Assembly: GCF_030815255.1 (NCBI RefSeq)
Contig: NZ_JAUSWN010000001.1
Span: 7,045-39,044, forward strand
Direction of reading: 5' to 3'
DNA length: 32,000 nucleotides
Origin: Hathewaya limosa
GTDB lineage: Bacteria > Bacillota > Clostridia > Clostridiales > Clostridiaceae
Shown in pieces: positions 6,124 to 31,391 of this stretch. Numbering within the stretch: position 1 is the stretch's first letter; each line of letters begins with the position of its first letter. Both the position numbers and the translations under genes were made by a program. Below the pieces are notes generated by a model. That model was not told where the DNA came from and made no database searches. It was given only the letters and a program-made list of their open reading frames with translations.

Positions 6124-7026
6124 TTGAACAAGGGGATAATTTTTAATATACAAAAGTATTCCATTCATGATGGTCCAGGAATTAGAACTACTGTGTTTTT
6201 AAAAGGGTGTCCTTTAAATTGTTGGTGGTGTCATAATCCTGAAAGTCAAAAAAAAGAGCCACAGTTAATGCATTTTAATTCGAAGTGTATTAAATGTGGA
6301 AGATGTGAAAATAAATGTAATCAGAATGCTATTTCTATAGTAGATAATAAGTTTTATTTAGATAAAAGTAAATGCACATTATGTGGACAGTGTGCTGATG
6401 TATGTGTACAAGCAGCCCTAGAGTTGTCAGGTAAAGAAGTTACAGTAGAGCAAGTGGTTAAGGAAGTTAAGAAAGATGAGATATTTTATGAGGAATCTAA
6501 TGGTGGAGTAACTTTTTCAGGTGGAGAACCTATGGCACAAATTGATTTTTTAGAGAAAGCACTTAAGGCCTGTAGTAATTCTGGAATTCACACTACAGTA
6601 GATACTTGTGCATTTACAACATGGAGTAATTTTGAAAGAATTCTAGATTATACAGATTTATTTTTAGTAGATTTGAAACACATCGATAGTAATGAGCATA
6701 AAAAATATACAGGTGTTCCTAATGAAACAATATTAGAAAATATTAAAAAACTTTCAGATTTAGGAAAAAAAATATATATAAGAATTCCCATAATTCCTGG
6801 TATCAATGATTCTAATGAAATCATTGATAGAACTATAAGTTTCTTAAGGGATATAAAAATGGATCAGTTAAATCTTTTGCCATATCATAAAATTGGTATG
6901 GATAAATATAAAAGACTTCAAGAAAATTATAAATTAGAAGGATTACAAGAGCCTTCACAAAAATATATGCAACAATTGGTAGAATATTTTAAGAAGAATG
7001 GGTTTAATGTCAAGATAGGGGGGTAA
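6124..7026 (+). CDS. Glycyl-radical enzyme activating enzyme (radical SAM, with two auxiliary ferredoxin-like 4Fe-4S motifs)
   Basis: The start is TTG after AAGGGGATGA. The N-terminus GIIFNIQKYSIHDGPGIRTTVFLKGCPLNCWWCHNPE contains the CxxxCxxC motif (C29, C33, C36). It is followed by CIKCGRCENKC and CTLCGQCADVC. The stop overlaps the RBS of the GRE gene. Confidence 0.92.
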   Translation: MNKGIIFNIQKYSIHDGPGIRTTVFLKGCPLNCWWCHNPESQKKEPQLMHFNSKCIKCGRCENKCNQNAISIVDNKFYLDKSKCTLCGQCADVCVQAALELSGKEVTVEQVVKEVKKDEIFYEESNGGVTFSGGEPMAQIDFLEKALKACSNSGIHTTVDTCAFTTWSNFERILDYTDLFLVDLKHIDSNEHKKYTGVPNETILENIKKLSDLGKKIYIRIPIIPGINDSNEIIDRTISFLRDIKMDQLNLLPYHKIGMDKYKRLQENYKLEGLQEPSQKYMQQLVEYFKKNGFNVKIGG

Positions 7027-7030
7027 TTTT

Positions 7031-9397
7031 ATGAAAACAAAAAGAGTAGAAAAATTAAGAGCTCAAAGTGTAAATGCAGTTCCATATATTTCTATGGAAA
7101 GAGCTAATCTCGTTACAGAGATTTACAAAAAATACCAAGGAGCAGTTCCAACTCCGATTTTAAGAGCATTAGCTTTTAAAAATATTATGGAAAATAAAAA
7201 ACTTTGTATTAATGATGGAGAATTAATTGTAGGAGAAAGAGGAGAGGCACCAGCCGCAACTCCAACTTATCCTGAACTTTGTTGTCATACTTTAAGCGAT
7301 TTTGATATTATGGATCAACGTGAAAAAATTTCTTTTAAAGTTTCTGAACATTCTAAGAAGTTCCAAGAGGAAACTATAATTCCGTTTTGGGAAAACAGGG
7401 CTATGAGACACATTCTTTTAGAAAATATGACTAAAGAATGGATGGATGCATATGAGGCCGGTATAATAACAGAATTTATGGAACAAAGGGCACCAGGACA
7501 TGCTGCTTTAGATGATAAAATATATCATAGGGGATTTGGTGATTTTAAAGCTCAAATTCAAAATGAAATAGATAAATTAGATTGTTTTAATGATACTATG
7601 TTTTTTGAGAAAAAGGCAGAACTTGAAGCTATGGCTATTGCTTGTGATGCATTAATAATTTATGGTAAGAGATATTCTGAATATGCTAGGGAATTAGCAG
7701 ACAAAGAAGAAGATTTAAATAGAAAAAAAGAATTAATGGAAATTTCAGAAAGATGTGCGTGGGTACCAGAACATGCACCAAGAAATTTTGCAGAAGCTCT
7801 TCAAATGTATTGGTTTGTACATTTAGGTGTAATAACTGAATTAAATACTTGGGATTCATTCTGTCCAGGAAGATTGGATCAACACTTATATCCATTCTAT
7901 AAACGTGAAGTTGACGAGGGAACTTTAACTAAAGAAAATGCTATGGAATTATTGGAATGTTTCTGGGTTAAGTTCAATAATCAACCAGCTCCACCTAAGG
8001 TTGGTATTACACTTGAGGAAAGTGGAACTTACACAGATTTTTGTAATATTAATATTGGTGGGGTTACTAAGGACGGCAAAGATGGTGTTAATGAGTTAAG
8101 TTATATGCTTCTTGATGTAATTGAAGAAATGAGATTATTACAACCAAGTTCAAATGTTCAAATTAGTAGATTAAATCCTGATAAGTTTATTAAAAGAGCG
8201 GCCAAAATCGTTAGAACAGGATTTGGACAACCATCTATGTTTAATGTAGAAACAGTTATTGAAGAAATGTTAAGAGTAGGAAAATCTATTGAAGATGCTA
8301 GATGTGGTGGAACAACAGGATGTGTTGAAACTGGTGCATTTGGTAAAGAACGTTATTCATTAACTGGTTACTTTAATTTGCCTAAGATTCTTGAAGTTAC
8401 TTTAAATAATGGTGTTGATCCTATGACAGGAAAGCAAATAGGATTAAAGACTGGTGATGTAACAGAATTTAAGTCTTATGATGAATTATTTGATGCATAT
8501 AAGAAACAAATAAAATATTTTGCTGATGTTAAAATTGAAGGAAATCAAATTATTGAAAAATTATATGCAATAACAATGCCATCACCATTTATGTCAGTTA
8601 TTATTGATGATTGTATCACTAAGGCTGTTGATTATAATGCAGGTGGGGCAAGATATAATACAAGATATATTCAAGGTGTTGGTATAGGAACTATTTCAGA
8701 TGCTTTATCATCTATTAAATATAATGTATTTGACAATAAGAAATTTACAATGAAAGAATTAATGGGAGCTTTAAAAGATAATTTTGAAGGTCATGAAGAT
8801 ATATACAATATTGTAAACAATAGAACTCCTAAGTATGGAAATGATGATGATTATGCAGATGATGTTATGAAATCTATATTTGATGCATACTATGATTCAA
8901 TAAATGGAAGATTAGCTCCAACTGGAGCGACTTATAGAATAGATATGTTGCCAACAACTTGCCATGTTTACTTTGGTAAAGTTATGGGTGCAAGTGCAGA
9001 TGGTAGACTATCTAGAAAGCCATTATCAGAGGGTATATCTCCATCAAAGGGAGCTGATAAAAATGGACCAACATCTGTAGTTAAATCTGCATCTAAAATG
9101 GATCATGTAAAAACTGGTGGTACATTGTTAAATCAAAAATTTACTCCAGATGTAATTGCAGGGGATGAAGGATTAGAAAATGTGAAAAATTTAGTAAGGG
9201 CTTACTTCAAGATGGGAGGACATCACATTCAATTTAATGTTGTAGATAAACAAACATTATTAAATGCACAAAAACATCCGGAAGAATACAAAGATTTAAT
9301 AGTTCGTGTTGCTGGATATAGTGATTATTTCTGTAACTTAAATAAAGTTCTTCAAGATGAAATAATTGAAAGAACAGAGCAAAGTTTTAACTGTTAA
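7031..9397 (+). CDS. hypD: Glycyl radical enzyme, most likely trans-4-hydroxy-L-proline dehydratase
   Basis: The ORF is 788 aa. The glycyl radical motif RVAGYS has Gly762 at codon 9314-9316. The Cys loop GCVETG has Cys431 at 8321-8323. His157, Asp275, Ser331, Phe337, Cys431, Glu433, Tyr447 and Gly762 all lie at a constant -3 offset from the C. difficile HypD residues as I recall them (H160, D278, S334, F340, C434, E436, Y450, G765). The cluster also includes proC, which is the published genomic signature of HypD. Confidence 0.8.
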   Translation: MKTKRVEKLRAQSVNAVPYISMERANLVTEIYKKYQGAVPTPILRALAFKNIMENKKLCINDGELIVGERGEAPAATPTYPELCCHTLSDFDIMDQREKISFKVSEHSKKFQEETIIPFWENRAMRHILLENMTKEWMDAYEAGIITEFMEQRAPGHAALDDKIYHRGFGDFKAQIQNEIDKLDCFNDTMFFEKKAELEAMAIACDALIIYGKRYSEYARELADKEEDLNRKKELMEISERCAWVPEHAPRNFAEALQMYWFVHLGVITELNTWDSFCPGRLDQHLYPFYKREVDEGTLTKENAMELLECFWVKFNNQPAPPKVGITLEESGTYTDFCNINIGGVTKDGKDGVNELSYMLLDVIEEMRLLQPSSNVQISRLNPDKFIKRAAKIVRTGFGQPSMFNVETVIEEMLRVGKSIEDARCGGTTGCVETGAFGKERYSLTGYFNLPKILEVTLNNGVDPMTGKQIGLKTGDVTEFKSYDELFDAYKKQIKYFADVKIEGNQIIEKLYAITMPSPFMSVIIDDCITKAVDYNAGGARYNTRYIQGVGIGTISDALSSIKYNVFDNKKFTMKELMGALKDNFEGHEDIYNIVNNRTPKYGNDDDYADDVMKSIFDAYYDSINGRLAPTGATYRIDMLPTTCHVYFGKVMGASADGRLSRKPLSEGISPSKGADKNGPTSVVKSASKMDHVKTGGTLLNQKFTPDVIAGDEGLENVKNLVRAYFKMGGHHIQFNVVDKQTLLNAQKHPEEYKDLIVRVAGYSDYFCNLNKVLQDEIIERTEQSFNC

Positions 9398-17084: not shown

Positions 17085-18122
17085 ATGAGTATGATGTCAA
17101 AAGGAAAATTAAAACATTACTTTTCCAGCATGCCCAAGACCCTTTTTATATTTGTTTTAGTTGTAACTTGTATGACGATGACGATTTTTTCTTTAAGAAA
17201 AACTATAACTATAACAATAGATGGACAAACTAAAACTATAACGACATTGAGCAGTAATTTGAAAAATATTTTAGACAACAATGGTATAGCCTTAGATAGA
17301 CATGATAAAATTTCTGTTAATGCGAACAGTAAAGTAAAAGATGGAGATAATATAAATATTAAAAGGGCTGTTAATGTAACTGTATCTGTTGATGGTAAAC
17401 AGTTGAATGTAAAATCTCCAGAGGATACTGTAAAAGAGTTACTTGTAGCTCAAAAGATTAAAGTTGAAAAATTAGACAAGTTATCTCTAGATCCTAAGAC
17501 TGCAATTAAAGAAGGGTTAAATGTTAAGATTACCAGAGTAAATGAAAAAATTGAAAAGAAATCAGAACCAATTCGATTTGCAAAAGAGGTTAGAGAAACT
17601 AAAGAGTATGAGACAGGAACTGAAAAAGTAATCCAAAATGGTAAAACTGGAGAAAAACTTATAGCTACTAAGGTAGTATATGAGGATGGAAAAGAAGTTT
17701 CAAGGCATGTAGTTGAAGAGAAAATTTTAAAACAACCTATAAATCAAATATTAGCTGTAGGAACTTTAAACGTGGTTAAGGCTTCTCGTGGTTCAAAAAT
17801 GAGTTATGCTAGAAAACTAAGAGTTAAAGCTACTGCGTATACAGCTGATTTTAATCCACAAGGGGTTAGAGATGACCCTTATGCAGGAAGGACAGCAAGT
17901 GGAACAAAAGCAAGAAGAAATTCAAGTGGATATAGTACCATAGCAGTAGATCCATCAATTATACCTTTAGGAACTAAGGTTTATGTAGAAGGTTATGGCT
18001 TAGCTATTGCTGAGGATACAGGTGGAGCAATAAAAGGGAATAAAATAGATCTTTATATGAATTCTTATTCTGAAGCTACCGATTGGGGTATGCAATATGT
18101 AGATTTATACATTCTAGAATAA
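17085..18122 (+). CDS. yabE: YabE-like cell-wall protein (TM anchor, DUF348 repeats, G5 domain, C-terminal 3D domain; RpfB-like architecture)
   Basis: There is an N-terminal TM helix. The DUF348-like segments are ITITIDGQTKTITT and VTVSVDGKQLNVKS. The G5-like block is VIQNGKTGEKLIATKVVYEDGKEV. The 3D domain is ATAYTADF...GRTASGTKARRN..STIAVDPSIIPLGTKVYVEGYGLAIAEDTGGAIKGNKIDLYM. Confidence 0.88.
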   Translation: MSMMSKGKLKHYFSSMPKTLFIFVLVVTCMTMTIFSLRKTITITIDGQTKTITTLSSNLKNILDNNGIALDRHDKISVNANSKVKDGDNINIKRAVNVTVSVDGKQLNVKSPEDTVKELLVAQKIKVEKLDKLSLDPKTAIKEGLNVKITRVNEKIEKKSEPIRFAKEVRETKEYETGTEKVIQNGKTGEKLIATKVVYEDGKEVSRHVVEEKILKQPINQILAVGTLNVVKASRGSKMSYARKLRVKATAYTADFNPQGVRDDPYAGRTASGTKARRNSSGYSTIAVDPSIIPLGTKVYVEGYGLAIAEDTGGAIKGNKIDLYMNSYSEATDWGMQYVDLYILE

Positions 18123-18140
18123 TATATAAAGAAATACTTA

Positions 18141-18167
18141 AAGGGAGCTAGTAAGCTTCCTTTTTTT
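18141..18167 (+). terminator. Rho-independent terminator after yabE
   Basis: AAGGGAGCT pairs with AGCTTCCTT (one mismatch), followed by seven T. Confidence 0.7.
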
Positions 18168-18241
18168 ATATTTACAATTAAAATTAGTGTATAATTAATA
18201 AGTAGAATAGGAAAATAATCAAAAAGAAAGAAGGAATGCAT

Positions 18242-19918
18242 ATGGAAGATAAATTTACGAATAAAAGAAAAAATCATATTATAGTTATTTTATTTATTAT
18301 AATAATTAGTTCTGTATGTATAAATGAAAAAGTTCATCTAATAAAAACTCCAAAACTAAAAGGAGCAACTATAGAAAAGAATAAACCTACATTTTCTTTA
18401 AGGAGTTATTTAAAGGGATCATATCAAAAAGATCTCGAGGAATGGTATAGTGGTAACTTTTCTTTAAGAAATAATTTTATTAAATTGTATTCAAAATTAA
18501 AATCTAATATATTTGATAAATCTGCATTACCAGGTGCAATAAAAGGTAAAGAAGGAATGCTGTTTGAACCAGATTATGTAGATGAATATTTAGGACTTAG
18601 AAAAACTACTTCTGATAAAGATTTAAAAAAATTAGTATATAATATAGATGAAATAAGAAGAATGTGTAATAAATCTGGAAAAGAATTTTATCTGATAATA
18701 ACTCCAAGTAAGGCTCATTTTTATCATGAATATTTACCAGAAAGGGCAGTGAGAGAAGGAACGTTACATAAAGACAGACAAGGAAAAAGTAGAGATTATT
18801 ATAGGTTTTTAAACATTTTAAACGATACAGATATTAAATACTTTGATAGTGTTAAGTATATAGAAGATAACAAGAAATTATTTAATACGCCTTTATATTC
18901 AAAATATGGAACTCATTGGACATTTGTGACAGCAGCGAAGGTAGTAAATGGATTTGTAGATTATGTTAATAAAACCTCAAAGTTAGATTTAACTAATATA
19001 TATGTAGATGATATATTAGAAAGTAATAAATCTTTTAATGAAGAAGATGTAGATATACAATCTGTTTTAAATTTTAAAAGTAAGGAAAAGTATAAATTTC
19101 AATCTCCTATAGTCAAATCGGAGAAAAAAGATACACGAAATATGCCTAATATATTTATTGAAGGTGGAAGTTTCAATTGGCAACTTATTAAATATTTAAG
19201 AATGAATAGAGTTGTTAATGAAATGGACTTCATGTTCTATAAAAAGTTTGTAAGAAGATATAAATTTCAACAAATGGTTAATGAGCAGGTTGCAATAGAT
19301 AAAAATAATAAGGAGTTAAGTAATGCATATTTAGATAGATATTTACCTAATAAGGATATGATTATTCTTGAAGTTAATCAAACGGCTCTTAATAATATGG
19401 GAGAAGGATTTATTGAAATTTTTAAAGATTATCTAAATACAAAGGGATTTCCTAAGTATGAATATATTAAAAATTTTGAGTCCGCTAGTACACCAGAAGA
19501 TTTAACTTACAAAAGTACAGGATTTTTCACAGTAAATAAAGATGAAAATGGATATTATAATTGGATGTCTGATGAAGGGATTGTACAATTAAAAAACAGG
19601 CAAATAGAAGATAGTGGAATTAGCATTAAGACCTATATTCCTTTAGACTATTTAAAGAAATCTTCTAATAATCCTCAATTAGATATTTATGTTAATGGAA
19701 AGTTGGTTTGTAAAGTTCCTATAAATAAGTCAGGAATTTATAATATAAATATTCCTAAGAATAAATTTAATATATCAAAAGATCATTTGTATAAGGTTGA
19801 TTTAAAAATGAATTCTGCTTTTAGATTTTGTGATGTTGATAACTCGCAGAATGAAGTTAATAAAAATAATAATCGTTGGTTTTCTATGAAAGTATATTAT
19901 ATAGGGGAAGGAAGATAG
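18242..19918 (+). CDS. Extracytoplasmic AlgX/AlgJ-like (DHHW-type, SGNH-like) putative O-acetyltransferase partner of the adjacent MBOAT protein, with a C-terminal beta-rich (CBM-like) extension
   Basis: There is an N-terminal signal-anchor (IIVILFIIIISSV). A THW motif (YGTHWT, codons 18908-18919) lies where AlgJ/AlgX/DHHW proteins carry D-x-H-W. A GGSF motif (19163-19174) lies where they carry G-D-S-F. The gene is translationally coupled to the downstream MBOAT gene. I prefer the ATG at 18242 over 18236 because the RBS AAGGAA overlaps the first ATG. Confidence 0.6.
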   Translation: MEDKFTNKRKNHIIVILFIIIISSVCINEKVHLIKTPKLKGATIEKNKPTFSLRSYLKGSYQKDLEEWYSGNFSLRNNFIKLYSKLKSNIFDKSALPGAIKGKEGMLFEPDYVDEYLGLRKTTSDKDLKKLVYNIDEIRRMCNKSGKEFYLIITPSKAHFYHEYLPERAVREGTLHKDRQGKSRDYYRFLNILNDTDIKYFDSVKYIEDNKKLFNTPLYSKYGTHWTFVTAAKVVNGFVDYVNKTSKLDLTNIYVDDILESNKSFNEEDVDIQSVLNFKSKEKYKFQSPIVKSEKKDTRNMPNIFIEGGSFNWQLIKYLRMNRVVNEMDFMFYKKFVRRYKFQQMVNEQVAIDKNNKELSNAYLDRYLPNKDMIILEVNQTALNNMGEGFIEIFKDYLNTKGFPKYEYIKNFESASTPEDLTYKSTGFFTVNKDENGYYNWMSDEGIVQLKNRQIEDSGISIKTYIPLDYLKKSSNNPQLDIYVNGKLVCKVPINKSGIYNINIPKNKFNISKDHLYKVDLKMNSAFRFCDVDNSQNEVNKNNNRWFSMKVYYIGEGR

Positions 19919-19927
19919 GGAGGAAGT

Positions 19928-21367
19928 ATGGTATTTAGTTCACCGATATTTTTATTCATATTTTTACCATTGATGTTAATCATTTATTTTTTTTCGGATA
20001 AAAAGTTTAAAAATTTCGTTTTACTCCTTGGTTCTTTAATATTTTATTCTTGGGGTGGTGCGAAATATCTTATTTTAATGCTTTTTTCTATTATAGTAAA
20101 TTATTTAATTGGTATTTTAATAGGAAAATATAAGAAAAATAATAATATAAAAAAATGTATACTTATATTAGGTGTATTATTTAATCTAAGCATATTAGGG
20201 TATTTTAAATATTTTAATTTTTTTATTCATAATGTTGAACATATAGGGAAAATATTCAATAATAATTTCAGTATTATGAATAACAAAATAGTATTACCTA
20301 TAGGAATTTCATTTTTTACATTCCAGATGATGTCTTATATAATTGATGTTTATAGGGAAGAGGTAACACCACAAAAAAGTATTATAAACCTTGGATTATA
20401 TATTATGCTATTCCCACAACTTATTGCAGGACCAATAGTTAGATATATAGATATAGAAGAACAAATTAATACTAGAAAAGTAAATCTATATAAATTTACA
20501 CATGGAATGGAAAGATTTATAATAGGCCTTTCAAAAAAAGTATTAATAGCAAATTCCAATGGTTTTATAGTAGATTATGTTTTTAAAGAGCCTTCTTTTT
20601 ATAGTAATACAGTATTGGTTTGGTTAGGGATAGTTTGTTATGCATTACAAATATACTATGATTTTTCAGGATATTCGGATATGGCAATAGGTCTCGGAAA
20701 AATGTTTGGTTTTGATTTTTTAGAGAATTTTAATTATCCATATATCTCTAAGAGTATAAAAGAATTTTGGAGAAGGTGGCATATTTCATTATCTACTTGG
20801 TTTAGAGATTATTTATATATTCCCTTAGGTGGAAGTAAAGTGGGGAAATTTAAAACTTATAGAAATTTAGTAATTGTATTTTTTGCTACAGGATTATGGC
20901 ACGGTGCTAGTTGGAATTTTATTATTTGGGGATTATTTCATGGAATGTTCCTTATTTTAGAGAGAGGAAAGTTTGGAGAATTATTGCAGAAAGTACCTAC
21001 TATACTACAAAGAATTTACACTATGCTTGTTGTTTTAGTCGGATGGGTATTTTTTAGGGCGAATAATTTTAAATTAGCATTAAAGTATATTAAGGGAATG
21101 TTTAAGGTTGATTTTACGAAAGTTAATCAAATATATGGGGTTATAGATAAAGAGTATATGTTTTTTATAATAATAGGAATAATATTTTCTACACCTTTAA
21201 TTAAAAAATTAAATTCCTTATTTAATAGTAAGATTAAGACTGAGAATAATTTAATTATAGTTATAACAGAAGGTATGTGGATAGCTATATTAATGAGTAT
21301 GTTTATTATTTCTATATTATACATAACAGGGTCAAACTTTAATCCATTTATATATTTTAGATTTTAG
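19928..21367 (+). CDS. MBOAT-family membrane-bound O-acyltransferase (AlgI/PatA/DltB-like)
   Basis: The 479-aa protein is polytopic. MBOAT signature blocks are present: FWRRWHISLSTWFRDYLYIPLGGS and GLWHGASWNFIIWGLFHG (conserved His). The RBS GGGAGGAAG overlaps the stop of the upstream gene. Confidence 0.92.
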   Translation: MVFSSPIFLFIFLPLMLIIYFFSDKKFKNFVLLLGSLIFYSWGGAKYLILMLFSIIVNYLIGILIGKYKKNNNIKKCILILGVLFNLSILGYFKYFNFFIHNVEHIGKIFNNNFSIMNNKIVLPIGISFFTFQMMSYIIDVYREEVTPQKSIINLGLYIMLFPQLIAGPIVRYIDIEEQINTRKVNLYKFTHGMERFIIGLSKKVLIANSNGFIVDYVFKEPSFYSNTVLVWLGIVCYALQIYYDFSGYSDMAIGLGKMFGFDFLENFNYPYISKSIKEFWRRWHISLSTWFRDYLYIPLGGSKVGKFKTYRNLVIVFFATGLWHGASWNFIIWGLFHGMFLILERGKFGELLQKVPTILQRIYTMLVVLVGWVFFRANNFKLALKYIKGMFKVDFTKVNQIYGVIDKEYMFFIIIGIIFSTPLIKKLNSLFNSKIKTENNLIIVITEGMWIAILMSMFIISILYITGSNFNPFIYFRF

Positions 21368-22927: not shown

Positions 22928-24355
22928 GTGGCTTCTAAGAAAAGTTATTCAAGATACTTTATAATATTACAGGAAGATGAAAAGGGGTACGCATTAGATA
23001 GAGATAAGAGTTCTTCTGGTTATGTGAAACTTGAAAAGAAAAATAATAAATGTAAAGTTTCTTTTTATGCCCAAAATATAAATCCAGGTATGGAACCATA
23101 TTATATGGTCTTAGTTTGCAAAGAAAAAAGCGTTAAAAAGCTATTAGTGCTTGGTAAACTAAGTATAAGTGAGCAAGGAAAAATTGACATGAGCTGTGAA
23201 TATGATGTAGATAACATTGCTGGTACTAAAATGTCAATGCAACATATAATAGGAGCAACTGTAAGTAAAGTTATTGAAAAGGACATAGTTTCATTAATGA
23301 GTGGTTTTATGGGTTCAGATATGCCTAAGGATTGGAAAAAATATGAACTTGTAAAAGTTACTAGGGAAGATGAAGTTGCAGAAAAAGAAGAAACTAAAAA
23401 TGTGGAACCAGATAAAACTAGAGAAGATCCTAAAATTGAACAAGAAGAAAAAGTGGAAGAACCAAAAAAACAGGAGTCTCCTAGAGGAACATTTGACGAG
23501 TATGAAAAGAAGATAGAGGAAAATGTAAAGGAAGAAGAAATACAAAGTTTACCTGAAGAAGAAGTAAGAAGTGAATCAGAATCAAATGATAGTACTAATC
23601 AGGATAAAAGTAAGGAAAATGAGATTTTATCTGAAGAGTCAACAGAGAAAGAAAATACAGAAATAGAAGAAGTATTAAATAGAGAAGAAACAGAAGAAAT
23701 ATTAGATAAAGAAGAAAGTCTAGAAAGATCACAAGAAGTTATAGGTGAAAAGGCAGAATCAGAAGACAATATAATTGATGAGGATGATGAATTTTGTAAT
23801 AGATATCTAGAAGAATTTATGGAAGAACCACAAATGGATTTTAGATATGATGAGAATTCAGAATATCATTCCTTTGAAGATATGTTACGCAAAAAGAAAA
23901 AATGTTGTTGTAAAAAATGTACTCATGAAGATATGCCAATAGGTAGACTAGGAGCTTATTTTAAAGGATTGATTTCTTGTTTTGACGAGATACAGGATAT
24001 GGGTGAAGAAATACCAATGTGTAAATGGTATAAGATACCTGTGGAAAAATTAGAAGATATGTATGATTGTTCGGATTTTGATAGATATACAATTATATAT
24101 TATCCTATGATTTGCTATTACTCCTATATAAGTAAACATAAACATTATTGTATAGGTTATAAATGTAACAAAGAAGGAAAACTACTATATATCCTTTATG
24201 CTATACCAGGTGGAAAGGATAGAATGTGTCAACCTTATGGTGGAAGAACAGGATTTGTAACTTGGATACCATATAAATGTCAAGAAAGTGGATATTGGTT
24301 AATGTTCTATGATTTTAGAAAATCAAGTGTAGTAGTGCCTATTAGAAAAAAATAA
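22928..24355 (+). CDS. Uncharacterised tripartite protein: ~135-aa N-terminal domain, ~170-aa Glu/Lys-rich acidic linker, ~180-aa Cys/Tyr-rich C-terminal domain
   Basis: The start is GTG, 5 nt after GGAGGGA. There is no signal peptide or TM segment. The linker (approx. 23340-23830) is low-complexity E/K/S. The C-terminal part begins KKKKCCCKKCTHEDMP and contains many Cys and aromatic residues (YYPMICYYSYISKHKHYCIGYKCNKEG...GYWLMFYDF). I recognise no family. Confidence 0.7.
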   Translation: MASKKSYSRYFIILQEDEKGYALDRDKSSSGYVKLEKKNNKCKVSFYAQNINPGMEPYYMVLVCKEKSVKKLLVLGKLSISEQGKIDMSCEYDVDNIAGTKMSMQHIIGATVSKVIEKDIVSLMSGFMGSDMPKDWKKYELVKVTREDEVAEKEETKNVEPDKTREDPKIEQEEKVEEPKKQESPRGTFDEYEKKIEENVKEEEIQSLPEEEVRSESESNDSTNQDKSKENEILSEESTEKENTEIEEVLNREETEEILDKEESLERSQEVIGEKAESEDNIIDEDDEFCNRYLEEFMEEPQMDFRYDENSEYHSFEDMLRKKKKCCCKKCTHEDMPIGRLGAYFKGLISCFDEIQDMGEEIPMCKWYKIPVEKLEDMYDCSDFDRYTIIYYPMICYYSYISKHKHYCIGYKCNKEGKLLYILYAIPGGKDRMCQPYGGRTGFVTWIPYKCQESGYWLMFYDFRKSSVVVPIRKK

Positions 24356-24490: not shown

Positions 24491-25081
24491 ATGAGGGATA
24501 AAGTGGAGAATAAAAAAGTTGTTGTAAATATTATTGTGCTGATAGTTTTAATGATGGTTTTAACAATTGGAGAATTAAAGTTAAATAGTAAACTAAAATT
24601 AACCGCTTTTTCTGAAAATAATATAAATGAGCTAAAGCAATATAAAAATCCTAATGGAAAATTAAGCTATTTCTTACCTAAAAATTGGGTTACGAATGAA
24701 GAAAAATTTAATGGTGGAGAAATAACATATCATAATGAATTTAAGTCTCCCGATAAAAAAATCTATGGATATGTACAACTGTGGAATAAGAAATCAGATT
24801 TAAAAGATTTTCTTTATAGTAGTAAAGAAATTTCATCAAAACAAAATGTTATTAATAATTATAAATTAGAAAAGTTTATTTTTAATAATAAAAAGGCCTA
24901 TAAGCTTATATACGATATGCAAATATCAGGGACTAATACTTTTAGGGTAGAAGAGTATTTTATAGACATTGGGGATCAATTTGTTAGGATATCTTTTTCA
25001 GTAAATAAGCAAAATTATAGGGAGCAAATGGGAAGAGTATTTAAAACAATAGTTGATACTATTAAAGTTAATAAAAAATAA
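24491..25081 (+). CDS. Membrane-anchored extracytoplasmic protein of unknown function
   Basis: The ORF is 196 aa with RBS GGAGGGA and one N-terminal TM helix (VVVNIIVLIVLMMVLTIG). The soluble domain that follows begins with a YFLPKNW motif reminiscent of PsbP/DcrB-like folds. That is resemblance only. Confidence 0.65.
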   Translation: MRDKVENKKVVVNIIVLIVLMMVLTIGELKLNSKLKLTAFSENNINELKQYKNPNGKLSYFLPKNWVTNEEKFNGGEITYHNEFKSPDKKIYGYVQLWNKKSDLKDFLYSSKEISSKQNVINNYKLEKFIFNNKKAYKLIYDMQISGTNTFRVEEYFIDIGDQFVRISFSVNKQNYREQMGRVFKTIVDTIKVNKK

Positions 25082-25335: not shown

Positions 25336-28300
25336 ATGAAAATGAAGAATAGAAAGGTACTTTCGTTAATTTACAGTTTTATTTTTATAAGTTTTATTTT
25401 TAGTTCAAATATGGTATATGCTGAAGAAGTTATATCGGATATGAATGCCATTAAAATTAGTTTAAATAACTTACAGGATGAAGAAACATTAAGTATAGAA
25501 AAGGAAGTTAAAGCTTCAGTAATAAGTATTAATCCTGTGGACAATGTAGAGGTTTATTTCAATGACAAAAAAATGGATAATATACCTTTTCAAGTGATAC
25601 ATAAGGATGATGATGAAAAAACTTATGGAGAATTTTCGTATAAGTTAAATCCTAAAGACCTATCAGAAGGTAAACATGAAATAGATTTCATTGTTACAGA
25701 TATTAATGGTAATTCTAAAAAGGAATCAAGAAATATAACTATTGAAGGCATAAAACAAAATGTAGAGGATGAACAAATTACTGAAAAGCGTAGAGATATT
25801 AAGGCCTTTGTTGAAAGTGAAAAGACATCAATTAGGGGAAGGGCAGAAATAACAAAGGGGCAAGCGTTTTCGTATCTAAGACTTAGAAATTCTCAAAAAT
25901 CCGATGAATATATAAGCAATTTTGTTACTTGGGTTTGGGAAGAAGGAGAAGCTGAAGGTATTCGTTCAGACATAGCGTTTGCACAAATGATGAAAGAAAC
26001 AGGATTTCTAAAGTTTGGCGGAGATGTTAGTGAAGAACAAAATAACTTTGCCGGTATTGGAGCAGTAGGCGGAGGTGTAGCAGGGGCAAGCTTTCCAACT
26101 ATTCAAATAGGCATAAGGGCTGTAATTCAACATCTTAAGGCATATGCTTGTAAAGATCCACTAAATAAGGAATTAGTAGATCCTAGATTTAATTTAGTTA
26201 CAAGAGGATGTGCTCCATATGTAGAAGATTTATCTAATAAATGGGCTGCAGGAGATTCTAACTATGGACAGGATATAGTTAAAATGGTGGAGTATGCTAA
26301 GACCTTAGAAAGTAGAAATCCAAAAGCGATTCTAAAAAGCTTTAAGGTTTATGATAATGGTGCAGAGTGTAATATTGATAACAAGTTTGTTTATAATAAA
26401 AAGTATACTTTAGTTGCAGAAGCTGAAAGTATGAATACAATACTATATCAATTTTGGATTAAAGATAAAAGAACAAATCAATGGACTATGTTAAGAGATT
26501 ATAGTGAAGATAATATATTTACTTGGACTTCACCATCTGATGGAAAAGATTATTTAATAGGGGTGCATGTAAAAGATAAATGTAGTAAAGAAAGATTAGA
26601 TGACTTCAAATATACTCCAGTTCAATTTATTTTAGAAAAAGCCAAATTACAAAGTTTTGGTGTATATGATGGAAATACTGAAATAAAGGATTTTGTATTT
26701 AAAAAGGGAAAAACATATACATTAAGGTCAAATGCTATAGCTAATTCAAAAGTATTATATCAATTTTGGATTAAAGATAAGCGTACAGATAAGTGGACTA
26801 TGTTAAGAGATTATGAAGAAAATAATACATGTACTTGGACAGCACCGACCGACGGAAAAGACTATTTAATAGGAGTACATGTAAAAGATGAAAGTAGTAA
26901 ACAAAGGTTAGATGATTTTAAATATAACATTATGAAGCTAGAGTCAATGAAATCTTACGTTCAGAGTTTCGGTGTATATGATGGTAATAACGAAATAAAA
27001 AATTCAGTATTCAAAAAAGGAAAAACATATACATTAAAAGCAGTAGCTATAGCAGAATCAAAGCCATTATATCAATTTTGGATAAAGGACAAAAGAAATG
27101 GCCAATGGACTATGTTAAGAGACTTTGCAGAAAGTAATACATTTACATGGATAGCACCAATGAATGGTCAAGATTATTTAATAGGTGTACATGTAAAAGA
27201 TAATCATAGTATTGAAAGATTAGATGATTTTAAATACAATCCTATTCACTTGGAAGTAGAAAAATCTCATATTCAAAGTTTTAGTGTGTATGATGGAAAT
27301 ACTGAAATAAAGAATTATGTATTTAAAAAAGGAAAATCATATACATTAAAATCAACTGCTATAGCAGAGTCAAAAGCATTATATCAATTCTGGATTAAAG
27401 ACAAAAGCAATAATCAATGGACTATGTTAAGAGATTTCGAGGAAGGCAATACAATTACATGGACAGCACCAACAGAGGGGCAAGATTATTTACTTGGAGT
27501 ACATGTAAAAGATAAATATAGTGTAGAAAGATTAGACGATTTTAAGTATAGTTCTATGAAGGTAGAGTCTGGAACAGCCCAAGTTCAAAGCTTTAAAATG
27601 TATTATGGATCAAAAGAAATAACATCACATGTTTTTCAAAGGGGTAAAAAATATACGTTAAAAGCAACGGCTAATGGAGCTTCAAAGCCATTATATCAAT
27701 TCTGGATTAAAGACAAAAGTAATAATCAATGGACTATGTTAAGAGATTTTGCAGAAAGTAATACAGTCACTTGGACAGCACCTACAAAAAGTTGTCAAGA
27801 TTATTTATTAGGGGTTCACATAAAAGATAAATGTAGTCAACAGAGATTGGATAGTTTTAAGTATCAGCCAATAACACTTTATGGAACTATCATAAATAAT
27901 AATAGTAAGAATAAGAAGAAGATAGTCTTAGATGCTGGACATGGAAATAGAAATCTTACTTATGGCGGATATGATTCAGGCGCAGTTGGCGTTGGCGGTA
28001 TAAGGGAAAGTGATCTTACTCAAAGTTTGACATTAAAGTTAGGACAATATTTGCAAAGACAAAACTTTGACATAATTTATACAAGAGATTACTTAAAAGG
28101 TTATACACAAGTAAGGGAAGATTTAATACAAAGAGTTGATGTTGCTAATAGTAACAAAGCGGATTTATTTGTAAGTCTTCATTTCGATAGTAGCAATAAT
28201 CCAAGTGCTAATGGTATTAGTACGCACTATAGTAGCTATAAACCTAATTTAGATAATTCAGGGTTACAGACTATGAATGATATAGTCTATGATAGAACAC

Positions 28301-28551
28301 CTTGTACAGAGGCTATAAAAAGTAGGGAATTATCTAATTTAATAGGCAAAAGACTAGCTGAACTAGGTTTTGTTAATAGAGGATCTAATGATCATAATTT
28401 ATATGTAACAAAAAATACTAACATGCCATCTTTACTTATAGAGAATGGGTTTGTTACTAATCCTACTGAAGCAAATAAAATTAAAGATCCAAATATGCAG
28501 AATAAAATGGCTGAAAAAATTGGACAAGCAATTAATGATTTTTTTAAGTAA
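25336..28551 (+). CDS. Secreted bifunctional peptidoglycan hydrolase: signal peptide, Ig-like N-domain, GH73-type N-acetylglucosaminidase, 5 x 104-aa repeats, N-acetylmuramoyl-L-alanine amidase (Amidase_3)
   Basis: The signal peptide ends with a VYA/EE cleavage site. The glucosaminidase block is AFAQMMKETGFLKFGG...NNFAGIGA...IRAVIQHLKAY (approx. 25830-26300). Five repeats follow. The amidase block is KKIVLDAGHG...DLFVSLHFDS...NMPSLLIENGFVTNPTE (approx. 27913-28548). Confidence 0.9.
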   Translation: MKMKNRKVLSLIYSFIFISFIFSSNMVYAEEVISDMNAIKISLNNLQDEETLSIEKEVKASVISINPVDNVEVYFNDKKMDNIPFQVIHKDDDEKTYGEFSYKLNPKDLSEGKHEIDFIVTDINGNSKKESRNITIEGIKQNVEDEQITEKRRDIKAFVESEKTSIRGRAEITKGQAFSYLRLRNSQKSDEYISNFVTWVWEEGEAEGIRSDIAFAQMMKETGFLKFGGDVSEEQNNFAGIGAVGGGVAGASFPTIQIGIRAVIQHLKAYACKDPLNKELVDPRFNLVTRGCAPYVEDLSNKWAAGDSNYGQDIVKMVEYAKTLESRNPKAILKSFKVYDNGAECNIDNKFVYNKKYTLVAEAESMNTILYQFWIKDKRTNQWTMLRDYSEDNIFTWTSPSDGKDYLIGVHVKDKCSKERLDDFKYTPVQFILEKAKLQSFGVYDGNTEIKDFVFKKGKTYTLRSNAIANSKVLYQFWIKDKRTDKWTMLRDYEENNTCTWTAPTDGKDYLIGVHVKDESSKQRLDDFKYNIMKLESMKSYVQSFGVYDGNNEIKNSVFKKGKTYTLKAVAIAESKPLYQFWIKDKRNGQWTMLRDFAESNTFTWIAPMNGQDYLIGVHVKDNHSIERLDDFKYNPIHLEVEKSHIQSFSVYDGNTEIKNYVFKKGKSYTLKSTAIAESKALYQFWIKDKSNNQWTMLRDFEEGNTITWTAPTEGQDYLLGVHVKDKYSVERLDDFKYSSMKVESGTAQVQSFKMYYGSKEITSHVFQRGKKYTLKATANGASKPLYQFWIKDKSNNQWTMLRDFAESNTVTWTAPTKSCQDYLLGVHIKDKCSQQRLDSFKYQPITLYGTIINNNSKNKKKIVLDAGHGNRNLTYGGYDSGAVGVGGIRESDLTQSLTLKLGQYLQRQNFDIIYTRDYLKGYTQVREDLIQRVDVANSNKADLFVSLHFDSSNNPSANGISTHYSSYKPNLDNSGLQTMNDIVYDRTPCTEAIKSRELSNLIGKRLAELGFVNRGSNDHNLYVTKNTNMPSLLIENGFVTNPTEANKIKDPNMQNKMAEKIGQAINDFFK
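26329..27888 (+). repeat. Five in-frame tandem coding repeats with a period of exactly 312 nt (104 aa)
   Basis: The anchor string CAATT(T/C)TGG (from YQFW) occurs at 26449, 26761, 27073, 27385 and 27697, so all spacings are 312. The repeat consensus is xLYQFWIKDK(R/S)xxQWTMLRD(Y/F)xExNxxTWTAPxxGxDYL(I/L)GVHVKDxxSxxRLDDFKY. Confidence 0.95.
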
Positions 28552-28793: not shown

Positions 28794-31391
28794 ATGAAGA
28801 ATGTCAACAAACGAATAAGGACTTTTATTTATAGTTTAATGTTTATTGGTTTTGTTTTTGGAATTCATGTAACTTATGCAGATGAAATATTGCAAGATAA
28901 AAATTCAACGAATCAAGTCGTAGATAAACAAGAATACAAGCAACATATCAGTTATTTAGATACGAAACAGGAAGATTGTACACTTATCATGGGACAGGCA
29001 GAAATGACAAAAGGACAGGCATTTACATATCTTAAACATAGAAATCACAATAAAGATACTAGATATATATATAATTTTGTTAATTATGTTTGGGAGGAAG
29101 GACAAAGGGAAGGGGTTCGTCCAGATATAGCTTTTGCCTTAATGATGAAAGAAACAGGGTTTTTAAATTTTGGTGGAGATGTAAGTGAAACACAAAATAA
29201 TTTTGGAGGTATTGGAGCTACTGGTGGTGGTGCTAAGGGAAATAGCTTTCCTAGTATTCAAATCGGTATAAGAGCTGTTATTCAACATCTTAAAGCCTAC
29301 GGAAGTAAAGAGAAATTAGTGAATGATGTTGTAGATCCAAGATTTGAAAAAGTTACAAGAGGAGTTGCACCTTATGTTGAATTATTAGCTAATAAGTGGG
29401 CTGTTGGTAATCCTAATTATGGCAGACAAATTGTAGCTATGGTTGAAAAAGGAAAAGAATTAAGTGATGAAAGTCCTAAAAGCATAGTAGAAGATTTTAA
29501 AATTTTAGATGGTAATTTAGATGTTACTAAAGAAAAACTTTTACGAGGAAAAACTTATACTTTAATGGCAGAGTCAAAGAGTGAAGAAAATACATTATAT
29601 CAATTTTGGCTTAAAGATAGAAGGACTAATAAATGGATTCTGTTAAGAGATTATGATACTAAAAATACAATAACATGGGTTGCACCTATGGATAATTGTG
29701 ATTATTTAATTGGAGTACATGTAAAAGGTCAATATAGTATGAAAAATTTAGATGACTTTTATTATGAATATATACAAGTTATCAAAGGTATAGCCAAGGT
29801 AAAAGGTTTATCAATATATGACGGGACTACAGTAATTTCTAATAGAAAATTAAAAAAGGGAAAAACTTATACAGTAAAGGCAGAAGTAGAAAAAAACTGT
29901 ATTCCAATGTATCAATTTTGGCTTAAGGATAAGAGAACAAATAAATGGATGATGCTAAAAGATTATGGAGAAAATAATACCATAGTATGGACATCACCTT
30001 TAGAAGGAAAAGATTATTTATTAGGAGTACATGTAAAAGATAAGTATAGTGATAAGAGATTGGATAGTTATAAATATGAAGGTATTCAATTAGTATCACA
30101 AAGTCCACAAAATACAATTTTAAATAGTTTTGAAGTGTATGATAGAAATAGCATTATAACAAATAATTTATTTAATAAAGGAAAGGCTTATACAATAAAA
30201 GTAAAGGCATTTTCTGCTACAAAGCCATTGTACCAATTTTGGCTTAAGGATAAAAGAACAAATAAGTGGACAATACTAAGGGATTATAGTGAAAGTGATA
30301 TGTTTAGTTGGATATCACCTAGTGACGGAGAAAATTATTTGTTAGGAGTGCATGTAAAAGATAAATATAGTGATAAAAGACTAGACCTATATCAATATAA
30401 ATCTATAAAAGTTATAGGAGAATCTATAATAGCCAATGTAAAGAATTTTAAAATATACCAAAATAGTAGTGAAATAACAGATGGTAGACTTAAACAAGGT
30501 GAACAATATAATTTAAAGGCATGTGCTATAGCAACTTCAAAACCATTGTATCAATTTTGGATTAAGGATAAAAGAAATGGTAAATGGACAATGTTAAAAG
30601 ATTATAGTGAAAAGGATACAATTACATGGATGTCACCAAATGAAGGAAAAGACTATTTGTTAGGAGTACATGTAAAAGATAAATACAGTATAAAAAGGTT
30701 AGATACTTTTAAGTATGTACCAATTACTATTTTAGGTGGAATTAATACTAAAAAGGCAAAAATAGTTTTAGATGCTGGTCATGGAAATAAAAATATTACT
30801 TACGGTGTTATTGATTCTGGATGCATAGGAGTAGGTGGCGTAAGAGAATGCGATTTAACTCAAATGTTAACAATGAAGGTAGGACAATATTTAAAAGAAC
30901 GTAATTTCGATGTTATTTATACACGAGATTATCTAAAAGGTTATAAAGAGGTTAAAAATGATTTACAACAAAGATGTGATATTGCTAATTATAATAAAGC
31001 AGATTTATTTGTAAGTTTTCATTTTGATTCAATTGGTAACCCTAAAGTTGAAGGAGTTAGTACACATTATAGTAGTTATAGGCCTAACTTAGATAATTCA
31101 GGATTACAAACTATAAATGATATAATATATGATAAAACACCTTGTATTCAGGCTATAAAAAGTAAAGAATTATCTGATATAATATGTAAAAGATTATCAG
31201 AATTGGGGTTTAAAAATAGAGGATCTAAAGATCATAATCTATATTTAACTAGAAATAGTAATATGATCTCTTTACTTATAGAATGTGGATTTATTACAAA
31301 TCCATCAGAGGTTAAAAAGGTGGAAAATCCAATAATACAAACTAAAATGGCCGAAAAAATTGGAGAGGCTATAAGTGATTTTTTAAAGTAA
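28794..31391 (+). CDS. Secreted bifunctional peptidoglycan hydrolase, paralog 2: signal peptide, GH73-type glucosaminidase, 4 x ~105-aa repeats, Amidase_3
   Basis: The signal peptide ends with a TYA/DE cleavage site. The glucosaminidase block is AFALMMKETGFLNFGG...NNFGGIGA...IRAVIQHLKAY. Four repeats follow. The amidase block is AKIVLDAGHG...DLFVSFHFDS...LLIECGFITNPSE. It lacks the ~120-aa Ig-like N-domain of paralog 1. Confidence 0.9.
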   Translation: MKNVNKRIRTFIYSLMFIGFVFGIHVTYADEILQDKNSTNQVVDKQEYKQHISYLDTKQEDCTLIMGQAEMTKGQAFTYLKHRNHNKDTRYIYNFVNYVWEEGQREGVRPDIAFALMMKETGFLNFGGDVSETQNNFGGIGATGGGAKGNSFPSIQIGIRAVIQHLKAYGSKEKLVNDVVDPRFEKVTRGVAPYVELLANKWAVGNPNYGRQIVAMVEKGKELSDESPKSIVEDFKILDGNLDVTKEKLLRGKTYTLMAESKSEENTLYQFWLKDRRTNKWILLRDYDTKNTITWVAPMDNCDYLIGVHVKGQYSMKNLDDFYYEYIQVIKGIAKVKGLSIYDGTTVISNRKLKKGKTYTVKAEVEKNCIPMYQFWLKDKRTNKWMMLKDYGENNTIVWTSPLEGKDYLLGVHVKDKYSDKRLDSYKYEGIQLVSQSPQNTILNSFEVYDRNSIITNNLFNKGKAYTIKVKAFSATKPLYQFWLKDKRTNKWTILRDYSESDMFSWISPSDGENYLLGVHVKDKYSDKRLDLYQYKSIKVIGESIIANVKNFKIYQNSSEITDGRLKQGEQYNLKACAIATSKPLYQFWIKDKRNGKWTMLKDYSEKDTITWMSPNEGKDYLLGVHVKDKYSIKRLDTFKYVPITILGGINTKKAKIVLDAGHGNKNITYGVIDSGCIGVGGVRECDLTQMLTMKVGQYLKERNFDVIYTRDYLKGYKEVKNDLQQRCDIANYNKADLFVSFHFDSIGNPKVEGVSTHYSSYRPNLDNSGLQTINDIIYDKTPCIQAIKSKELSDIICKRLSELGFKNRGSKDHNLYLTRNSNMISLLIECGFITNPSEVKKVENPIIQTKMAEKIGEAISDFLK
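29481..30743 (+). repeat. Four in-frame tandem coding repeats of the same module as in paralog 1
   Basis: The CAATTTT anchors lie at 29601, 29913, 30234 and 30552, giving spacings of 312, 321 and 318 nt. The consensus is YQFW(L/I)KDKRTNKWxxL(R/K)DYxExxxxxWxSPxxGxxYLLGVHVKDKYSxKRLDxYKY. Confidence 0.95.

Follow-up and report, generated by a model that had tools for sequence, protein, structure and literature searches.

The stretch of Hathewaya limosa DNA analyzed here, 32,000 nucleotides (nt) from contig NZ_JAUSWN010000001.1 (positions 7,045 to 39,044; hereafter the window), carries two neighboring genes whose products, p1 and p2, are by their domain content secreted bifunctional peptidoglycan hydrolases, or autolysins. 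Each combines a GH73 domain, a tandem array of repeats of about 104 amino acids (aa) and an Amidase_3 domain, and the repeats are the only non-catalytic part of either protein, except for an N-terminal domain in p1. These repeats, a probable branch of the triple-tyrosine (Y_Y_Y) family that may serve to hold the enzyme in the cell wall, are the subject of this report. The two genes and their parts are laid out as follows.

25336..28551, + strand: p1, secreted bifunctional autolysin, 1071 aa (from the list of open reading frames (ORFs), with its Pfam and NCBIfam domains)
25336..25422, + strand: predicted Sec signal peptide of p1 (MKMKNRKVLSLIYSFIFISFIFSSNMVYA, followed by EE), inferred by eye from the sequence
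25504..25743, + strand: N-terminal acidic immunoglobulin-like (Ig-like) domain of p1, with weak Big_7, Big_13 and DUF4625 matches at aa 57-136
25786..26328, + strand: GH73 N-acetylglucosaminidase domain of p1 (PF01832 at aa 200-321, 43.6 bits against a cut-off of 30.2)
26329..26643, + strand: repeat 1, aa 332-436, 105 aa (hidden Markov model (HMM) envelope of 160.5 bits; alignment A1)
26644..26955, + strand: repeat 2, aa 437-540, 104 aa (169.9 bits), the first half of the two-repeat model
26956..27267, + strand: repeat 3, aa 541-644, 104 aa (172.5 bits), the copy that was modeled
27268..27579, + strand: repeat 4, aa 645-748, 104 aa (171.6 bits)
27580..27894, + strand: repeat 5, aa 749-853, 105 aa, with an insertion in 'TKSCQDY' (163.1 bits; alignment A1)
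27922..28536, + strand: Amidase_3 N-acetylmuramoyl-L-alanine amidase domain of p1 (PF01520 at aa 863-1067, 153 bits against a cut-off of 27)
28794..31391, + strand: p2, 865 aa, with signal peptide, GH73, four repeats and Amidase_3 (from the ORF list, Pfam and NCBIfam, and the repeat HMM)
29484..30746, + strand: the four p2 repeats, aa 231-334, 335-438, 442-545 and 548-651 (HMM envelopes of 158-165 bits)

Both proteins start with what appears, judged by eye, to be a typical Sec signal peptide. In p1, it is followed by the N-terminal Ig-like domain, GH73, the five repeats and Amidase_3, and exactly the same protein is present in NCBI assembly GCA_039521445.1 (contig BAAACJ010000024.1). The N-terminal domain has an isoelectric point (pI) of 4.45 and is common to p1 and its ortholog in Hathewaya massiliensis (phmmer E = 2.6e-17), while it is absent from p2 and from the Haloimpatiens ortholog. 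In p2, the repeat array is the only non-catalytic module, as it is in many homologs. The catalytic domains of p2 are found at aa 98-219 (PF01832, 45.2 bits against 30.2) and aa 657-861 (PF01520, 136 bits against 27). A first-pass annotation of this DNA, made from the letters alone, had placed the array of p1 between two peptidoglycan hydrolase domains, and both of these flanking domains are real, lying above the curated Pfam cut-offs. At E<=1e-3, sequence searches of the PDB detect no relative of the GH73 domain. In NCBIfam, this region of p1 is closest to TftA, a cyanobacterial hormogonium morphoprotein, matching its C-terminal part at 185 bits (below the cut-off). The amidase of p1 can be aligned to CwlV (PDB 1JWQ) over the DAGHG, Glu, SLHFDS and LIENGF segments. 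Relative to CwlV, the domain (27901-28548) carries about 30 extra residues (…SSYKPNLDNSGLQTMNDIVYDRTPCTEAIK…) between the two aligned blocks, and the same insertion is present in p2.

The five repeats of p1 span aa 332-853. An HMM of the repeat unit, built from the nine copies in the window (five in p1 and four in p2), recovers every copy with an envelope of 158-172 bits (160-172 bits for the p1 copies), which agrees to within two residues with the extent first proposed (26329-27888, aa 332-851). Tandem Repeats Finder reports 4.5 copies of a 312-nt period at 26444-27864 of the window (77% matches, 1% indels, score 1330). The YQFW motif of p1 starts at aa 371, 475, 579, 683 and 787, a spacing of exactly 104 aa, so that the period of exactly 312 nt that had been claimed for all five copies holds from motif to motif; it does not hold for every unit, since copies 1 and 5 are 105 aa long because of a one-residue insertion in each. 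In p2, the motif starts at aa 269, 373, 480 and 586, at spacings of 104, 107 and 106 aa. The chosen register coincides with predicted domain boundaries, strand A starting at residue 2 of the unit and strand G ending at residue 100.

Over the nine window copies, 22 columns are invariant (Y..YQFW.KD..W..L.D..W..P..YL.GVH.K..S..LD..Y), eight of which are polar, and the conserved core described in the first-pass annotation is correct. The ratio of nonsynonymous to synonymous substitution rates (dN/dS) is 0.16-0.26 among copies 2-4, and the repeats are therefore under purifying selection. Most of them are basic, with a pI of 9.0-9.6.

Each repeat is predicted to be an Ig-like, roughly FN3-sized β-sandwich, and the p1 array to consist of five of these placed head to tail. 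Repeat 3 of p1 was modeled by AlphaFold2 with an alignment of 83 homologous repeats, giving eight β strands at a mean predicted local distance difference test score (pLDDT) of 95.8 and a predicted template modeling score (pTM) of 0.85. A two-repeat model of copies 2-3 (pLDDT 95.5, pTM 0.76) has about four well-ordered residues between strand G and the next strand A, and the picture these models favor is that of a semi-rigid chain of Ig-like domains. The β-sandwich that had been suggested from the sequence is thus borne out by the model and by the Ig/FN3-like character of its structural neighbors. Foldseek found no match to the single repeat at E<=1e-3 in the PDB or among the viral models of BFVD, the neighbors being of generic Ig/FN3 type. 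In the PDB, a GH158 enzyme provides the top match with its Ig-like C-terminal domain (E = 2e-3, TM 0.72), and the best matches in BFVD are Ig-like domains of Bacillus phage G proteins. With two repeats, generic tandem FN3/Ig/macroglobulin arrays were retrieved (titin, neogenin, complement C3), at low TM-scores. The check by AlphaFold and Foldseek that had been proposed for one and two repeats gave no confident assignment to a known wall-binding family.

Sequence searches of the PDB add little. The nine-copy profile found nothing meaningful (top match prolyl endopeptidase, E = 0.52), and the 83-sequence profile found a single, marginal match to the region adjoining CBM74 of Sas6 (7UWU aa 555-626, E = 0.0025), below which only chance-level matches to antibodies and 3C proteases appeared. 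Weak resemblances to coronavirus 3C-like protease recur among GC-rich members of the family (Peptidase_C30, as well as 3CLpro chains of the PDB at E~0.3) and are most likely a chance similarity of segments rich in β strands.

To which family the repeat belongs is less obvious from the window proteins than from their relatives. PF07495, the Y_Y_Y family to which the first-pass annotation had compared the repeat, does not match whole p1 or whole p2 at E<=1 in a Pfam scan, and among single window repeats it matches one of nine (E = 9e-4). Through relatives, the assignment holds. PF07495 matches 43 of the 83 homologous repeats taken singly (best E = 7.8e-11) and 43 of 48 family proteins (best E = 3.6e-70) in a sample drawn from the best family matches. 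A phmmer search with the whole repeat region found 177 proteins, nearly all with a precomputed PF07495 label, at E-values down to 1e-17 to 1e-30, and some of these relatives are named 'triple tyrosine motif-containing protein' by NCBI. The NCBIfam model of that name, PRK14081, matches both p1 (E = 1.1e-33, 116 bits) and p2 (E = 1.5e-32, 113 bits); the scores are far below the equivalog cut-off of 842, and the window proteins are therefore not the PRK14081 protein itself. PRK14081 has tandem Y_Y_Y-type repeats like those of the window, whereas neither its name nor its model description includes hydrolase domains. By such transitive homology, the repeat is supported, if indirectly, as a divergent 'YQFW' branch of the Y_Y_Y or triple-tyrosine family.

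This branch is part of a large family. A homolog search with the repeat profile returned six short fragments only. When 1.84 billion cluster representatives were searched exhaustively by profile, 7,996 proteins were found at E<=1e-3 and 1,911 at E<=1e-30. The number of tandem copies reaches 21 in the wider family and is one to six among close relatives. Residues Y39, F41, W51, W65 and Y74 are near-invariant across the family, joined by W42, D82 and S85 in the set linked to hydrolases. Y39 is found in 100% and Y74 in 92% of close relatives, and the middle position, F41, is Phe in 86% and Tyr in the remainder. Y39, F41 and Y74 are presumably the counterparts of the canonical tyrosines in the Pfam consensus of Y_Y_Y.

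The closest syntenic ortholog is a single gene of 969 aa in H. massiliensis, made up of the N-terminal domain, GH73, four repeats and Amidase_3. Because H. massiliensis has one gene at this position, p2 represents a lineage-specific tandem duplicate. The identity between p1 and p2 is 66% in GH73, 52% in the repeats and 71% in the amidase. The ortholog in Haloimpatiens lingqiaonensis (locus L003, 4375-7506) is 1043 aa long and has six repeats. Its copies 2-5 are 98-100% identical at the protein level, which points to a very recent amplification or to gene conversion within the array. A scan of contigs found nine loci only, because it works with exact peptide patterns.

Other close relatives are proteins of Clostridium botulinum and C. 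sporogenes (for example P0035, P0040, P0007 and P0024), a different lineage, with a repeat identity of 38-50%. Many have the layout of the window proteins, GH73 with three or four repeats and Amidase_3; others have an N-terminal region of about 170 aa, three to five repeats and Amidase_3, or repeats and GH73. They are annotated as 'N-acetylmuramoyl-L-alanine amidase', 'glucosaminidase domain-containing protein' or 'triple tyrosine motif-containing protein', and the architecture of GH73, repeats and Amidase_3 is accordingly not new, being already annotated in many public proteins of these species. Different layouts may occur on one contig, such as P0026 with P0040 and P0008 with P0024. By analogy, the use of one repeat on several hydrolase layouts is the pattern of species-specific wall-binding repeat families. 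In remote relatives (21-30% identity), the repeat accompanies GH18 ('YaaH'), Amidase_2, CAP, phosphoesterase and β-propeller domains. The commonest enzymatic partners in the 48-protein sample act on peptidoglycan; they are Glucosaminidase (GH73; nine proteins), Amidase_3 (five) and SpoIID (three), and other partners are BiPBP_C (five), cohesin (three), SH3_3 (two) and assorted Ig-like domains. The literature searched yielded no paper on the role of a Y_Y_Y-type repeat in a peptidoglycan hydrolase and no characterization of the C. botulinum and C. sporogenes relatives.

The staphylococcal autolysins Atl and AtlE offer a model for the function proposed here. They are secreted proteins composed of an amidase, the repeats R1-R3 and a glucosaminidase, and it is the repeats that target them to the wall or septum. 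Like the window proteins, they place two peptidoglycan-cleaving domains around a central repeat array. The domain order is reversed, however, the amidase is of the Amidase_2 and not the Amidase_3 type, and the Atl repeats are GW/SH3b-like whereas those of the window are Ig-like; neither Pfam nor Foldseek found a relationship in sequence or fold between the two kinds of repeat. Another clostridial surface amidase, Cwp6 of C. difficile (PDB 5J72), has an Amidase_3 domain that matches that of the window (E = 4.9e-13), but its non-catalytic part consists of three CWB2 domains, which are lacking from the window proteins in the Pfam scan. More generally, no match to SH3b/SH3_3, LysM, CWB1/2, GW, SLH, SPOR, PG_binding or ChW was found in p1, p2 or single repeats with Pfam and NCBIfam at E<=1, and the claim that the repeat is unlike the usual wall-binding repeats of Gram-positive bacteria survives these scans.

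The reading proposed here is that the array constitutes a multivalent module for wall association and positioning of the autolysin, for which we consider the chances to be even. The simpler statement that the array binds the wall is just as finely balanced, and binding and spacing are compatible with each other. Strands were assigned from the AlphaFold2 model combined with column statistics of the relatives. The parity of a hydrophobic core runs through V37, Y39, F41 and I43 (strand C), Y74, I76, V78 and V80 (F), F63 and W65 (E) and Y25, L27, A29 and A31 (B). Alternating with these are the conserved positions L38, Q40, W42 and K44 on strand C and H79 and K/R81 on strand F, with R/Q55 on strand C'; position 79 is Trp instead of His in GC-rich lineages. 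Presumably these residues face the solvent in the modeled sandwich, and since strands C, F and C' are normally neighbors in an Ig-like sandwich, they could form one aromatic and basic patch of the kind that binds glycans.

In this model, each domain would present a conserved patch (L38, Q40, W42, H/W79, K/R81 and R/Q55) where strands C, F and C' face outward. Through this patch the domain would bind weakly to a wall glycan, which could be peptidoglycan strands or an anionic secondary polymer, and avidity would come from the presence of four to six copies. With about four ordered residues joining successive domains, the array would therefore behave as a semi-rigid rod, about 15-20 nm long for four to five domains if each measures the approximately 4 nm assumed as typical of Ig-like domains. 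Such a rod would keep the glycan-cutting and peptide-cutting domains apart in the thick Gram-positive wall.

Wall association is made plausible by several features of the sequences: the lack of any other wall-binding module, the sharing of the repeat among hydrolases and its recurrence with peptidoglycan enzymes, and the basic pI, together with the conserved residues that appear to point outward. The variable copy number with recent amplification and the purifying selection may be counted on the same side. It is also conceivable, at somewhat less than even probability, that the 'YQFW' branch represents an unrecognized class of multivalent cell-wall-binding module, whose site would be the patch of Trp, His or Trp, and Lys or Arg on one sheet.

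A number of observations weigh against wall binding. The outward orientation of the patch is read from strand parity only. No SH3b/SH3_3, LysM, CWB1/2, GW, SLH, SPOR, PG_binding_1, ChW or carbohydrate-binding module (CBM) is among the Foldseek PDB matches listed, so that a structural analog with a binding function is lacking there. Between the two paralogs, the repeats diverge faster than the catalytic domains (52% against 66-71% identity). The family also accompanies β-propellers, cohesins, PKD/filamin domains and enzymes that do not act on walls, and some relatives (P0031, P0061) carry SH3_3 besides the repeats and therefore need not use the repeat as an anchor. None of 50,697 phage records was matched when two repeats were searched against them by tblastn, and the modular logic of endolysins is therefore no argument for a binding role.

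The best-known relative points the same way. The Y_Y_Y domain of BT4663, a Bacteroides hybrid two-component sensor (PDB 4A2L/4A2M), is the only characterized Y_Y_Y domain, and it was found to be a spacer and dimerization element (PMC5121618). It was not described as the ligand-binding part of the protein (PMC5121618). The argument of the first-pass annotation that Y_Y_Y accompanies carbohydrate sensing is for this reason unsupported as a case for ligand binding. Like the window repeat as modeled, the BT4663 domain is an all-β Ig-like sandwich of about 100-120 residues, and the two have in common the signature Y-x-[YF] ... W ... G-x-Y-x(3)-V-x-[VA]-[KR]-D. In BT4663, however, a single copy lies beside the membrane after two β-propellers, whereas the window proteins are secreted enzymes with four to five tandem copies and no propellers; moreover, the second Tyr is Phe in the window repeat, which has the additional subfamily-conserved residues Q40, W42 and H79. 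Neither 4A2L nor related entries are among the 50 Foldseek matches listed.

The strongest alternative, possible though on the doubtful side, is that the array is purely a stalk, an inert, protease-resistant Ig-like rod that keeps the two catalytic domains apart and sets their reach, while the wall is engaged by the catalytic domains themselves. Ig/FN3 'linker' domains act in this way in many glycoside hydrolases, and the spacer and dimerization role of BT4663 would fit (PMC5121618). So would the structural neighbors, all of them generic tandem Ig/FN3/macroglobulin arrays, the short ordered junctions with a di-repeat pTM of 0.76, and the weak Sas6 match, which flanks CBM74 and is not the CBM itself. 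The lower conservation of the repeats relative to the catalytic domains, the many unrelated partners in the family and the absence of the repeat from the phage records searched are likewise in keeping with a stalk. Yet a secreted Gram-positive autolysin without a module for wall retention would be unusual, and p2 has nothing else that could serve. A spacer has no need of the apparently outward residues Q40, W42, H/W79 and K/R81, which are conserved across phyla, and neither the basic pI nor the use of one module on several different hydrolases in one genome is what a simple stalk would lead one to expect.

A module for protein-protein interaction, either in dimerization or oligomerization of the autolysin or in docking to an S-layer or division-site protein, is unlikely. 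A role in dimerization has been reported for BT4663 (PMC5121618), a conserved surface patch would be as suitable for contact with a protein as for glycan binding, and cohesin domains are found in three of the 48 sampled family members. There is no conserved partner gene evident, however, beyond the neighbors that are syntenic with H. massiliensis (the PsbP_2-like and 475-aa proteins), and variable copy number with recent amplification suits avidity or the tuning of length better than a fixed interface.

The weakest alternative concerns family and not function: that the repeat belongs to DUF3472/BPSS1860 (PF11958) and not to Y_Y_Y is very improbable and was rejected, since PF11958, although alone among Pfam families in passing its whole-protein cut-off with the repeats of the window (five stretches, 45.7 bits for a cut-off of 24.8), and although it matches eight of the nine single copies at E<=1e-3 to 1e-4, covers per repeat only about positions 91-169 of a 269-position profile, scores about 20 bits on single copies, below the cut-off of 24.8, has a precomputed mark graded 'faint', and matches five of the 83 homologous repeats against 43 for PF07495.

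The locus itself is a chromosomal one of housekeeping type and not a prophage. In the window, a Toprim/DUF4093 gene is followed, in this order, by an rRNA adenine dimethyltransferase, a 475-aa protein, a PsbP_2-like protein, the autolysins and Lgt, and the same arrangement is present in H. massiliensis, judging by ORF sizes and order. The PsbP_2-like protein (196 aa, E = 2e-9; window positions 24491-25081) is encoded directly upstream of the autolysin and is either a membrane protein or secreted. H. massiliensis has a 193-aa ORF in its position, and a functional tie between this protein and the autolysin is possible. No Pfam family matches the 475-aa ORF (22928-24355), whose long acidic middle of low complexity includes a 27-nt tandem repeat at 23659-23717 and whose C-terminus is rich in Cys and Tyr (…KKKKCCCKKC…). 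H. massiliensis has a 554-aa ORF in the same place upstream of its autolysin.

Further upstream, a cluster of envelope genes at 17085-21367 encodes a YabE-like protein (DUF348-G5-3D), a weakly AlgX-like SGNH protein of 560 aa and a 479-aa MBOAT O-acyltransferase. The SGNH protein and the acyltransferase resemble a polymer acylation pair of the PatA/PatB or Dlt kind, which could modify the wall material on which the autolysins act. Unrelated to the repeat are a PFL-like glycyl-radical enzyme (788 aa) and its radical-SAM activase (300 aa) at 6124-9397, preceded by an HTH-cupin regulator.

Whichever reading proves correct, public databases already contain both the sequence family and this domain architecture. 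If the repeat is a spacer only, it is an ordinary case of Ig-like linker domains in a multidomain hydrolase. If it binds the wall, a new family would join the short list of wall-targeting modules of Gram-positive bacteria, and the thousands of 'Y_Y_Y' annotations outside two-component sensors would acquire a functional meaning; about 8,000 family representatives are now labeled only 'Y_Y_Y' or 'hypothetical'. For labeling or for engineered lysins, such a module would offer a means of targeting that is specific to the C. botulinum/C. sporogenes/Hathewaya group. In Clostridium group I, Hathewaya, Haloimpatiens and many other lineages, the 'YQFW' branch could then have the function for which CWB2, SH3b, LysM or choline-binding repeats are used elsewhere.

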